Source: a virus (lineage: Duplodnaviria > Heunggongvirae > Uroviricota > Caudoviricetes). Taken from it: a DNA stretch of 9,910 nucleotides. Of the stretch, positions 2,812 to 9,910 are shown piece by piece. The notes below the pieces were generated by a model. That model had not been told where the DNA came from and ran no database searches. It saw nothing but the letters and a program-made list of their open reading frames with translations. The stretch is from positions 1 to 9,910 of the IMG/VR virus record IMGVR_UViG_2529293139_000004; one strand, 5' to 3'. How positions within the stretch are numbered: the stretch's first letter is position 1; the number at the start of each line of letters is the position of its first letter. Position numbers and translations under genes: made by a program.

Positions 2812-2833
2812 ATGCCCGGTTGATGCCGGGCAT
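2812..2833. terminator. hairpin between convergent genes (KilA-C gene and c1), probable bidirectional terminator
   Basis: 8-bp perfect stem ATGCCCGG/CCGGGCAT with 6-nt loop, followed on the plus strand by AATTTATT. Lies 8 nt after the KilA-C ORF stop and directly 3' of the c1 stop. Confidence 0.55.
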
Positions 2834-2836
2834 AAT

Positions 2837-3688
2837 TTATTGCGCGCTTTCGGGGTTGTCGTTTACTGGCTGCCCCTTCTTAGTTTTACGGCTGCGCGTA
2901 ACTGATGCGGCTGATTTGACCTTTTTCTCTTCGCGAGTGATGGCAATTTGTTTTTTTACATTTTCAATATCTGCCAGGCGATATATTTTTGCCTGGGGCC
3001 AGCGGTCGCAGATGATCGGTTCTATGGAGTCATATAGGCTAAATTTTGCTTTTTCGAATTCACCGTTGATGATAATTCCATCACGGAGAGTTTCATCGCA
3101 GATAAACACGCCACATAGTGGCACATGGTAACTCACTGATTTACCATCATTGTAGTTAGGGCTACTGGAAATGTAGTGGACGCGCAGCATTGTTTCGCTA
3201 AAGCCGTGTACGCGCATACGGAATTTTTCATCCTCCGGGTACTGCCTCATTAGCTCTTTTGTTGCTTCCAGGTTCTCTATGTATTTCGCACTGTGCTCAT
3301 TGATCCCCGCGCTTTTTTGGATGCGAATGTCCTTATCAATCAGATGAATAATGCGGCCAGCGGTCATGTTGACGCTGTTTACAGCTTCTGTCTGATAAGT
3401 TGTAACCTTACGTACACCGCGAAGGATGTTAGGCACTGGATATAAAATAGTCTTTGGGATATTGAGGTCTGGGTACTGTTCCAGTTCCCGCGCCATTAAA
3501 GTCCATTTATCAATTTCAGCCTGAATGCTGTCCGTTTCTTTGAACGGCAGAACGACAACCGGGCGAACAGGACGACCGTCGCTGGCGGCATCAACGTGTT
3601 GGGCGCGTGCAACAGCTTTTTTTAGAAAGAGATCCCTGAAGCTGACGAACTCCTGGTACAGTTGTTCGCCGTAGACATAATTTATCAT
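2837..3688 (-). CDS. c1: C1 repressor of lysis/lysogeny, 283 aa
   Basis: 283-aa product starting MINYVYGEQLYQEFVSFRDLF..., matching P1 C1 from memory. Strong SD (GGAGGAGG) upstream on the minus strand. Confidence 0.95.
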   Translation of the reverse strand: MINYVYGEQLYQEFVSFRDLFLKKAVARAQHVDAASDGRPVRPVVVLPFKETDSIQAEIDKWTLMARELEQYPDLNIPKTILYPVPNILRGVRKVTTYQTEAVNSVNMTAGRIIHLIDKDIRIQKSAGINEHSAKYIENLEATKELMRQYPEDEKFRMRVHGFSETMLRVHYISSSPNYNDGKSVSYHVPLCGVFICDETLRDGIIINGEFEKAKFSLYDSIEPIICDRWPQAKIYRLADIENVKKQIAITREEKKVKSAASVTRSRKTKKGQPVNDNPESAQ

Positions 3689-7108: not shown

Positions 7109-7876
7109 ATGGAGCATAAGCCAAATATGACAACGCACAAAATCCCAAAAAAATTTTGGGACAAAAAGATGGTTGAATGGCCATGTCCTAATTGCGGGCA
7201 AAAAACCCTGAGAATTTTAGACGAATCTTTCATCTGTAAGGACACTGCTGAAACTATCAAAATGCAGGCTGAGGAATGGTTTGACTTAGAGTATACAAGC
7301 TCGGTATTCAGTTGCATGTCACAGTGCGTAAGACCTCAATGTAAGGAGGTAGTGGCATGCACAGGCAGAAGTGGTCTAGAAGAAGATTGGGCCGAGCATA
7401 CAGGACTTTATTACTATCGCTGGTATGAACCATTAAGTTTTACTCCTGGGTTAAAGCTCTTTCTTATCCCGAACATGTGCCCTGAAGACATAGCCTTGCC
7501 TATAAACACCTCGTTTGCACTAAGCACAATCCATCCAGGTGCCGCTGCAAATCTAATAAGAACATCTGTAGAACGATTACTTACAGCTATCGGGGTAACG
7601 GAAACAAACGAAAAAGGGAATAGAATTAACCTCCATAATAGGATTGAGATGATCCCTAGTGAACATTCTGGCTTTAAAAGCCTGTTATTTGCGATTAAGT
7701 TTCTTGGAAATGCGGGTAGCCACCGCTATGAAAACGTTACCGCTGATGACTTGGATAACTCATACGAGATCATGAATTTTATTCTAAGAGATTTATATTC
7801 GGATAATCGCAAAAAGGTTAGTGAGTTAGCTAATAATCTAGACAAAAAATTTAATCCTCAAAAACAAAAAGGTTGA
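7109..7876 (+). CDS. 255-aa protein: N-terminal Cys-rich zinc-ribbon-like region plus C-terminal DUF4145-like helical domain; candidate accessory/defense gene
   Basis: CPNCGQ...C...CMSQCVRPQCKEVVAC in the N-terminal half. C-terminal AAANLIRTSVERLL...FAIKFLGNAGSH...YEIMNFILRDLY fits the DUF4145 pattern as I recall it. Gene is visibly AT-rich compared with flanking P1 core genes. Confidence 0.75.
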   Translation: MEHKPNMTTHKIPKKFWDKKMVEWPCPNCGQKTLRILDESFICKDTAETIKMQAEEWFDLEYTSSVFSCMSQCVRPQCKEVVACTGRSGLEEDWAEHTGLYYYRWYEPLSFTPGLKLFLIPNMCPEDIALPINTSFALSTIHPGAAANLIRTSVERLLTAIGVTETNEKGNRINLHNRIEMIPSEHSGFKSLLFAIKFLGNAGSHRYENVTADDLDNSYEIMNFILRDLYSDNRKKVSELANNLDKKFNPQKQKG

Positions 7877-8031: not shown

Positions 8032-8673
8032 ATGGATAAGAAAATATGCGTTGTTTCAATGAGCGTCGGCAAACCGGCGTCAATGACTGCTGCATGGATC
8101 AATAATGAGCTGATAATGGCTGAGCGGACCAGCTACCCTGAACGCCGCCGCGATATGGAACTCCAGCTGCTGCGCGAATTGCGAGAAAAAGAGGAAAAGA
8201 GTTTTATCGTGCTGGTGGAAGAGGAAAACAGCTTTATTACGGGTCGAGTTGGCCAGCGTGTAAGGTTGCGCGATCCCTTCATGAACGGCAGGCCGGTACT
8301 AATTGAAGCAATGCAGATTTACAAGGAGCTGGAACGCCAGAAAGCAATCAAGTTACCGCGCAAGGAATCCGGCAAATACATCCTCCACCAAAGCATCTTC
8401 GATTCCGAACACGATAAAAAAGGCGATGAATTTTTCAACATCAACTGGAGCGAAATAACGACAGAGCATGTTCTGACGTTACTATGTTGCTTTGTGACGG
8501 AATACAACAACGTTGCCAGCGCCGACTACATCAGGGCAATGGCTGGAGAAGTTGAGGCCCGCCAAGAACCATCGTTACTAAGTCCACTGATTAACATAAT
8601 TCTGGGCACCCAGATACTGGAACAAAAAAAAGTGCCGAAAGGGGTATTAACAGGCAAGCATAATTATTTTTAA
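8032..8673 (+). CDS. hypothetical 213-aa protein with no domain I can recognise
   Basis: ATG 8032 preceded by AGGGG. Long ORF with GC content typical of the P1 backbone, flanked by AT-rich genes. May be a core phage gene (mat-like position) or a partner of neighbouring genes. Confidence 0.7.
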   Translation: MDKKICVVSMSVGKPASMTAAWINNELIMAERTSYPERRRDMELQLLRELREKEEKSFIVLVEEENSFITGRVGQRVRLRDPFMNGRPVLIEAMQIYKELERQKAIKLPRKESGKYILHQSIFDSEHDKKGDEFFNINWSEITTEHVLTLLCCFVTEYNNVASADYIRAMAGEVEARQEPSLLSPLINIILGTQILEQKKVPKGVLTGKHNYF

Positions 8674-8766
8674 CAATTATATACAGTAATTTTGTGGTTA
8701 CATTCTCCATTGATTTTCTAACCGCTTTATCATTAGATGTAACAGCATGTAAATCATTTAAAATGG

Positions 8767-9657
8767 ATGAAAGCAATGGGGAATGAAGTTTATCAAAGTC
8801 AAAAATGCAAGTTGAAATATTCAAAATCTCAAATTGATAGGGCTGCTCAATTGATAAGGCACGGGTGTAGTGACGAAGAAAGGCAGCAATCTATTGAAAT
8901 GATACAAAATTTCCGTGAGCTGCATCTTTATCCATTAATGCTCATGAAAAATCATTTAGCAAGAGCAGCTGCTAAGGTTGACAAAGACAAAAAGATTCTC
9001 GTTGCAAGAAGACTTAAGCGACTTTCTACCATAATAGATAAACTAGAGCGTCCTAGTCTTGATGGAGGCAGAACTAGCAATGCAATTAAATTAACACGGA
9101 TGCAGGACGTTGGCGGATGTAGGGCCATTGTCAGAAACTTAGACCAGTTGATACAGCTAAAGGAACGTCTTTTAAAAAGCAAATCTGTTCATAGGATTGT
9201 TAAAGAGTATGATTATCTTACTCCCAAAGACAGCGGCTATAGTGGAATCCACCTTGCATACAGTTGCTTCGATCAGAAAGAGGATCAATATCCGTGGCGA
9301 AAAACAAAGATTGAGATACAGTTAAGAACTCAATTGCAGCATGCTTGGGCTACTAGCCTTGAAATAATTGATACCCTTGAAGGTATCAAGCTGAAAACTT
9401 CAAGTGAAGGGCATCCAGAATGGAGACGATTTTTCTATCTAGCCGGATGTCTTGTAGCGCACGACGAAAAAGCCTGCACTCTTGATGAGCTAGTTGTATC
9501 TCAGTATGAAGGCGAGCTTAAAGAGCTGGAACGGACTTTATCTGTACGGAGGAAACTAAGCACATACACCATCGCCGGTAGTGACTCCAACTTACTGATA
9601 GTGTTTTATGTTCAGATAATGCCCGATGACCTTGTCATGCAGCTCCACCGATTTTGA
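8767..9657 (+). CDS. RelA/SpoT-family nucleotidyltransferase (toxSAS/CapRel-like), 3' end interrupted by IS1: native codons 1-270 (8767-9576), then 26 IS1-derived codons
   Basis: Synthetase-domain motifs [33 protein letters not shown] and [13 protein letters not shown]. The IS1 IRR begins at 9577 inside the reading frame, so the last 26 aa and the stop are IS1 sequence. Confidence 0.8.
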
Positions 9658-9910
9658 GAACGACAGTGACTTCCGTCCCAGCCTTGCCAGATGTTGTCTC
9701 AGATTCAGATTATGTCGCTCAATGCGCTGAGTGTAACGCTTGCTGATAACGTGCAGCTTTCCCTTCAGGCGTGATTCATACAGCGGCCAGCCATCCGTCA
9801 TCCATACCACGACCTCAAAGGCCGACAGCAGGCTCAGAAGACGCGCCAGTGTGGCCAGAGTGCGTTCACCGAAAACGTGCGCCACAACTAGTCCTCCGTA
9901 TCCTGTCATA
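9577..9910 (-). mobile_element. IS1 insertion sequence, partial (IRR and 3' part of insB; continues beyond window end)
   Basis: GGTAGTGACTCCAACTTACTGAT at 9577-9599 is an IS1 right inverted repeat variant; the downstream sequence encodes the InsB C-terminus on the minus strand. Confidence 0.9.
9592..9910 (-). CDS. insB: IS1 transposase InsB, C-terminal portion (N-terminus beyond window)
   Basis: Minus-strand translation ...[98 protein letters not shown] matches IS1 InsB; stop codon lies within the IRR. Confidence 0.88.

Follow-up and report, generated by a model that had tools for sequence, protein, structure and literature searches.

A capRel defence gene truncated by IS1 in a P1-like element of Escherichia coli E1520

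A reading frame that begins with the motifs of a RelA/SpoT nucleotidyltransferase and ends inside an insertion sequence raises the question of what the gene was before it was cut, and of how a cell can carry the part that is left. The window analysed here is the whole stretch of 9,910 nucleotides, which is one whole contig of scaffold GL871779.1 (GCA_000190815.1, the E. coli E1520 draft), lying between two runs of N and with IS1 at both ends. Translation of the window gave a chimeric ORF of 296 aa at 8767–9657 on the plus strand. By exact-protein look-up, this capRel-IS1 allele was found once, in that assembly. We regard the feature as very probably a 5′ remnant of capRel, a known defence gene that IS1 has turned into a pseudogene without defence function. 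The features around the junction and the two IS1 copies are:

8674–8775, plus strand: intergenic region upstream of capRel, with the presumed promoter and ribosome-binding site, unaltered relative to intact alleles
8767–9657, plus strand: longest chimeric ORF (296 aa), annotated by NCBI from 8776 (293 aa)
8776–9576, plus strand: 5′ part of capRel, residues 1–267 in SJ46 numbering, 100% nucleotide identity to the intact allele
9568–9576, plus strand: ACCATCGCC, the 9 bp expected to be duplicated in a simple IS1 insertion
9577–9657, plus strand: codons derived from IS1 IRR, 26 codons and a stop, a foreign C-terminal tail with a hydrophobic core
9577–9910: right-hand IS1 variant, first 334 bp, IRR end first, the contig ending inside it
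9592–9909, minus strand: 3′ part of insB, its ORF matched by Pfam DDE_Tnp_IS1
1–124: IRL end of the resident IS1 at the left contig end, in the same orientation as the right-hand IS1

As judged by BLAST and alignment, window positions 8467–9576 are 100% identical to the intact capRel of pL73-2 and its upstream sequence, and homology to intact capRel ends exactly at 9576, which is nt 810 and codon 270 of the gene. Two intact plasmid copies of capRel aligned with the window showed perfect identity up to 9576 and no relationship after it. From 9577 onward the sequence is that of IS1, matching thousands of annotated copies and starting at base 1 of the 768-bp element, and IS1 is read in frame from capRel because 8767 + 3 × 270 = 9577. 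IS1 was thereby shown to have landed between capRel codons 270 and 271. The original prediction, made from the letters alone, had the IS1 inverted repeat entering the ORF in frame at 9577 and had taken the 296-aa product for a chimera with a 26-aa IS1 tail; both points were borne out, with base 1 of the element at 9577 and native identity stopping at codon 270. A break on the exact terminal base of an IS is a signature of transposition, and neither of chance nor of a chimeric read. The 26-residue tail matched phrog_27209 (E 2e-15), the PHROG of IS1-end read-through peptides, and its 10-residue core is hydrophobic (GRAVY 2.5) where the native capRel sequence is polar. With known IS1 disruptions the window shares the precise IS1 terminus, insB on the opposite strand and the read-through tail from the inverted repeat; it differs in that the other IS1 end lies outside the window, since the contig stops 334 bp into the element.

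The true start of capRel is probably the ATG at 8776 (M4), because CapRelSJ46, the NCBI product of the window gene (EGB30546.1 / WP_000526243.1, 293 aa) and the 375-aa intact RefSeq protein all start there; the last native residue would then be 267. The region upstream of the gene is identical to that of intact alleles from −299 (about 300 bp). A consensus promoter scan of 8674–8775 gave no convincing promoter, with hit counts at chance level, and the sole plus-strand match 5′ of capRel (8591–8618) lies inside the mat-like ORF, again with counts at chance level.

The gene was assigned to its family through both the window copy and the intact allele (WP_000526244.1), which has 1137 nt and encodes 375 aa from M4 or 378 aa from the upstream ATG. 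Pfam RelA_SpoT matched residues 82–196 of the chimera (E 2.2e-12; 47.7 bits, cut-off 27), and the catalytic and key residues R79, R116, Y155 and A77 are all kept, in columns that are invariant or nearly so in a 40-sequence alignment. The toxSYNTH domain of CapRel is therefore present in the window copy, in agreement with the full set of synthetase motifs that had been read from its translation. The PADLOC candidate-defence model PDC-S33 matched the chimera with E 3.4e-70 over profile positions 4–252 of 349 only, against positions 5–342 of 349 on the intact allele. When compared by phmmer, the intact allele matched the CapRelSJ46 structure 7ZTB over residues 4–374 with E 9e-186, as well as 9ERV, and matched structures of RelP/RelQ with E about 1e-8 only. 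Its identity to CapRelSJ46 is 73.6% over the whole protein, 77.5% over residues 1–267 and 63.9% over residues 268–375; with a C-terminal part this divergent, the intact allele may respond to different phage proteins.

CapRelSJ46 (Salmonella phage SJ46, a Punavirus; Zhang et al. 2022, 2024) has the same architecture as the intact allele, and the two share R79, R116, Y155 and the YXXY motif, which is YPNY in the allele. The window copy differs from CapRelSJ46 in that residues 268–375, comprising the pseudo-zinc-finger domain (pseudo-ZFD), YXXY and the C-terminal helix, are replaced by the 26-aa IS1 tail. The fused antitoxin/sensor is thus absent, IS1 standing after residue 267, and the window copy is a truncated CapRel remnant and not a complete CapRel. 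The lack of a fused antitoxin is due to this truncation, not to membership of another family. Judged by sequence and by locus, the gene is a positional orthologue of CapRelSJ46, and the family that had been proposed as CapRel-like could so be named by the phmmer match, the whole-protein identity and the common slot after mat. Neither of the two outcomes that the original prediction had set against itself was found. The first, a best match to housekeeping synthetases, was contradicted by the YjbM/RelQ equivalog NF053588, which gave 36 bits against a cut-off of 320, and by the far weaker RelP/RelQ matches. The second was that intact homologues end near residue 270. Of the 120 best homologues, however, nearly all measure about 350–460 aa and most 364–400 aa; the few short ones (180–316 aa) are on short contigs or marked partial.

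The locus is that of a P1-type (Punavirus) backbone; the genes of the window are, in this order, phd-doc, one for a DUF968/HNH protein, c1, cre, ref, one for a DUF4145 protein, mat and capRel. On its left the capRel slot is marked by:

8032–8673, plus strand: P1 mat-like gene, 213 aa, a maturation control protein in SJ46 and related plasmids

In phage SJ46 and related plasmids the order is mat-capRel-lxc-darB, so the slot of CapRelSJ46 is that of the window gene, after mat, with lxc next in SJ46 and in the relatives that have the intact allele; lxc and the other right-hand neighbours fall outside the window. The res-mod genes of EcoP1I of phage P1 presumably occupy the same variable defence slot after mat in P1-type genomes; they differ from capRel in defence mechanism, and the proteins are unrelated. 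According to a survey preprint, which takes in about 1,600 sequences of the P1/D6 group, P1-like elements carry type III RM, CapRel, dGTPase or PrrC, with CapRel or dGTPase commoner in those from E. coli.

Two other regions of the window were also examined. The DUF4145 protein (255 aa, 7109–7876), located between ref and mat, is present in plasmids of the pL73-2 type and absent from pE2-2, and no PADLOC or NCBIfam match was obtained for it; it is a variable accessory gene beside the defence slot. At 2279–2488 and 2820–3131, only the first 59 residues of the late-promoter activator Lpa are left (its profile has 148 positions), directly adjoining an antirepressor (KilAC) fragment without its N-terminus; the annotation of pL73-2 shows the same fusion. 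It may be that late genes can no longer be switched on in this P1-like element, in which case it would be a defective phage-plasmid.

The position of the cut in the protein was determined on an AlphaFold (AF2) model of the intact allele, built from the 40-sequence alignment (pLDDT 81), which contains:

Residues 214–230, 238–255 and 257–272: linker helices
Residues 286–343: pseudo-zinc-finger strands
Residues 353–356: YPNY motif (YXXY), from alignment and model
Residues 357–371: terminal helix

According to this model the break after residue 267 (SJ46 numbering) lies within linker helix a9. The remnant keeps the whole toxSYNTH domain, linker helices a7 and a8 and most of a9, while the pseudo-ZFD strands and the YPNY motif are all 3′ of the break. 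In CapRelSJ46, residues 1–272 are toxic and residues 273–373 rescue in trans (Zhang et al. 2022, PMC9712102), and the break in the window is five residues upstream of this published boundary. The suggestion that an insertion at about residue 270 could part toxin from antitoxin therefore holds, as does the assignment of the C-terminal roughly 100 aa of CapRel-type proteins to the antitoxin/sensor, which corresponds to the published rescuing fragment. The YXXY motif of the C-terminal domain (Y352, Y355) obstructs the ATP site that R79 and R116 form, and single substitutions in the YXXY/interface region make CapRel constitutively toxic (PMC9712102). When the capsid trigger is provided to cells that express CapRel from its own promoter, the protein becomes highly toxic (PMC9712102). 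Pyrophosphorylation of the tRNA 3′-CCA and capsid-triggered protection are published only for the SJ46, Ebc and Kp homologues (PMC9712102).

The window carries two different IS1 copies. The one at 1–124 is identical to the pL73-2 copy and is found at that site in hundreds of plasmids. The right-hand copy is 98–99% identical to IS1 copies of E. coli chromosomes, some annotated as IS1X2 family, and 93% identical to the resident plasmid IS1, from which it differs at 22 positions over 334 bp. A copy of the plasmid's resident IS1 as the source of the capRel insertion was rejected on account of this 93% identity. The comparison suggests that the element was newly inserted and came from among the IS1 copies of the host itself.

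Beyond a gap of 20 N the scaffold runs on into a truncated IS2 (3′ part) and then bcsC. This IS2′-bcsC block is plasmid-borne in relatives such as pEC1515-2, and a chromosomal cointegrate was rejected for that reason. In pEC1515-2 the block follows a further IS1, whose polarity matches, at a distance of about 20 kb from capRel and in inverted orientation to it. The scaffold order could reflect an inversion between IS1 copies, a population containing both isomers, or a scaffolding jump over a small repeat-bounded contig. The genes bcsC and bcsB and a fragment of bcsZ were also observed as cargo on P1-like plasmids (L003:11838-20882, L020:4682-8262), where this cellulose-synthase block is interspersed with IS2, IS200 and reverse-transcriptase genes of group II introns.

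The other side of the insertion was sought in several collections. No match to the capRel-IS1 junction was found in complete E. coli genomes, PLSDB plasmids, phage records or a set of one genome per species. The reciprocal junction (the IS1 IRL end followed by ACCATCGCC and capRel from nt 811 onward) was found in none of the metagenome contigs, and complete E. coli genomes contained no capRel 3′ fragment starting near nt 802–811. The 3′ fragment of E1520 itself was sought by way of an 84-aa C-terminal ORF (P0001), and none of 12 of the 13 contigs carrying that ORF came from the E1520 assembly. Neither this fragment nor a second copy of ACCATCGCC is visible, because the draft assembly breaks inside IS1. 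If the event was a simple insertion that left the 3′ fragment in place, the sequence at the IRL end would read ...CAGCATCACC-ACCATCGCC-TTAAATTTAAC....

The sequence of events that we favour is that a chromosomal-type IS1 variant inserted into capRel of a P1-like phage-plasmid, where the gene normally stands between mat and lxc. The remnant encodes a complete and unmutated tRNA-pyrophosphokinase (toxSYNTH) domain with an IS1 tail of 26 residues. It lacks the pseudo-zinc-finger capsid sensor as well as the YXXY motif that plugs the ATP site. With no sensor left, phage-triggered defence is in all likelihood lost. The viability of E. coli E1520 means that in its native setting the remnant must be sub-lethal. 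Since activated full-length CapRel is highly toxic at native expression, the remnant must presumably be much less active or much less abundant than the activated protein, or else be neutralised. The reasoning of the original prediction, by which the toxin would be inactive, silenced or neutralised in trans, is to that extent sound.

Three accounts of this tolerance were weighed. With helix a9 clipped and a hydrophobic tail added, the fragment would be unstable or weakly active at single-copy native expression, and this is the most likely reason, to which we give about an even chance. The nearest tested construct, CapRelSJ46(1–272), is toxic, which counts against a harmless fragment of 267 residues. 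That toxin-only construct ends at the end of helix a9, is toxic from an inducible vector and inhibits translation. The window remnant is five residues shorter, has the foreign hydrophobic tail, retains the native upstream region and belongs to a P1-type prophage plasmid whose host is a viable isolate. A retained 3′ fragment that supplies the antitoxin in trans is a less likely reason, and the remaining weight falls on low-level toxicity borne as a cost or on a mixed population.

Since the contig shows neither the second end of IS1 nor the duplication nor the 3′ fragment, a simple insertion is indistinguishable from an IS1-mediated rearrangement. Such a rearrangement (adjacent deletion, inversion, or recombination between inverted IS1 copies), by which the 3′ part was deleted or carried to a place about 20 kb away, is possible though it would not be our first expectation. 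It would account for the scaffold order of IS1, 20-N gap, truncated IS2 and bcsC, and the position of IS2′-bcsC in relatives, behind an IS1 of the same polarity and inverted relative to capRel, is the product expected of an inversion between inverted IS1 copies. However, little trust can be placed in scaffold joins made across repeats, the stated gap length is nominal, the corresponding IS1 of pEC1515-2 shares only 93% identity with that of the window, and a population of both isomers or a skipped small contig would yield the same scaffold.

Evidence that bears both on the favoured origin and on the fate of the 3′ part came from other copies of the gene. Intact capRel (at least 80% covered) was present on 77 of 84 complete E. 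coli replicons carrying the allele, with 49 of 52 as the figures for PLSDB; roughly one in ten copies of the allele in complete genomes is broken. The disruptions catalogued are:

capRel nt 110: break, in a complete genome
up to capRel nt 277: 5′ deletion, in complete genomes
about codon 103: IS-derived N-terminal fusion, P0011
nt 709–712: IS3-family insertion, in four samples
nt 724: ISKpn26 at a CTAG site, in three chromosomes, the 3′ part alone kept
nt 751–757: Tn3-family insertion, in three samples
after codon 251: a second IS1, IRL end first, P0018
after codon 266: element, P0009
nt 970: IS3, plasmid p65COLEC-2 (L015:4010-4987)
near nt 1006 and nt 1110: breaks, P0005 and P0010
capRel promoter region: IS1, pCD74-2-1 (L004:3772-4469)
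within capRel: frameshifts, including that of phage vB_EcoM-673R5 (L018:2510-3609)

The visible toxin-coding parts of the broken copies are 99.1–100% identical to the intact allele, so several lineages carry toxin-bearing remnants without compensating changes in the toxin. As far as these sequences indicate, capRel remnants with the toxin half are tolerated.

Single cases differ in what is left. The IS3 of p65COLEC-2 leaves a 325-aa CapRel without the YXXY lock and the last sensor strand, and the host strain is viable. In the chromosome of E. coli 30EVA2 (L016:4986-5414), as in H162 and H164, only capRel nt 724–1137 is left behind ISKpn26; the annotated 142-aa ORF starts in the IS end and would encode the whole antitoxin/sensor alone. 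In pCD74-2-1, IS1 is located 10–17 bp 5′ of an otherwise intact capRel and parts the gene from its normal upstream region, and the neighbouring mat is frameshifted. In vB_EcoM-673R5, capRel is frameshifted into two ORFs, so that the defence gene has been lost in a sequenced phage too. As the truncated protein of p65COLEC-2 has no YXXY lock and a split antitoxin domain and is nevertheless encoded on an assembled plasmid, this case weighs for instability or weak activity of such fragments.

That the 5′ part serves as the toxin of a split pair, neutralised in trans by the 3′ fragment (residues 268–375) beyond IS1, is unlikely, and equally doubtful is that the 3′ fragment is expressed from an IS1-borne or hybrid promoter in the manner of bipartite toxSAS modules. 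The published rescue of residues 1–272 by residues 273–373 (PMC9712102) speaks for such a pair. Bipartite relatives do exist, namely PhRel/ATphRel of phage Phrann, FaRel2/ATfaRel2 and unfused CapRel, in which a toxSYNTH toxin is separate from a pZFD-type antitoxin, and an IS-split capRel would resemble them in having two separate polypeptides. They differ in being co-transcribed two-gene operons that form stable complexes, whereas the capRel halves considered here are parted by an IS. Other alleles split by mobile elements keep the full C-terminal coding part, 100% identical, beside the element, and all insertions at codons 237–270 are upstream of the start of the rescuing fragment. Against the pair stand the searches described above, in which the E1520 3′ fragment was not among 12 of the 13 contigs with the 84-aa C-terminal ORF and neither complete E. 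coli genomes nor the metagenome contigs scanned contained the reciprocal junction. Furthermore, there is no in-frame ATG from the break to M294, so translation of the antitoxin domain in full would have to begin at a codon other than ATG. The truncation in p65COLEC-2, which splits the antitoxin domain itself, is tolerated, and rescue is therefore not required for tolerance.

A wider form of this proposal is that mobile elements repeatedly split the fused capRel in the a8-a9 linker and that the splits survive as a toxin with a trans-acting antitoxin or as a free functional sensor, which we consider quite improbable. Six of the 12 catalogued in-gene breakpoints fall in nt 709–810, the a8-a9 linker, most of them from searches biased towards that region. 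They involve IS3-family, IS5-like, Tn3-family and IS1 elements and are independent (L007, L008, L010–L014, L026, P0009 and P0018). In the unbiased set of complete genomes, one of the four breakpoints lies in nt 709–810. A clustering of breakpoints in the linker is suggestive at most, and we claim no hot spot, as ascertainment favours the region. If the proposal were true, the E1520 allele would count among several cases in which a fused toxin-antitoxin has been split in nature.

It is highly improbable that the capRel-IS1 join is an assembly artefact, that is, a chimeric contig end with the real gene intact. An artefact would fit with a window that makes up an entire contig, flanked by N gaps and ending in IS1 on either side, and with an allele seen in one assembly only; however, the join falls on the exact terminal IS1 base and runs for 334 bp through a variant differing at 22 positions from the resident IS1, assemblers break at repeats and do not invent precise IS termini, and independent IS and transposon insertions in capRel are common in other samples. 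Finally, a natural short form or a housekeeping small alarmone synthetase that needs no C-terminal domain is hardly conceivable: the gene's sole NCBIfam match is a GTP diphosphokinase model and some relatives are named 'GTP pyrophosphokinase', but the score of 36 against 320 bits, the match to CapRelSJ46 over that to RelP/RelQ, the usual length of the homologues and the IS1 origin of the C-terminal tail all stand against it.

CapRel, the defence slot of P1-like elements and IS1 as a mutagen are all already known. WP_000526243.1 is currently listed as a plain RelA/SpoT domain protein, even though part of this chimera is IS1 sequence. CapRel serves as a model of how one bacterial immunity protein can sense phage proteins directly, and the E1520 allele is a natural near-copy of the laboratory toxin-only construct in a living isolate, which raises the question of its toxicity and stability. 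A genuinely active fragment would have to be neutralised by something in the cell; if it is inactive, the last turns of helix a9 or the tail would decide stability. With about one in ten copies broken, P1-like plasmids readily lose this defence gene to the insertion sequences of their hosts.
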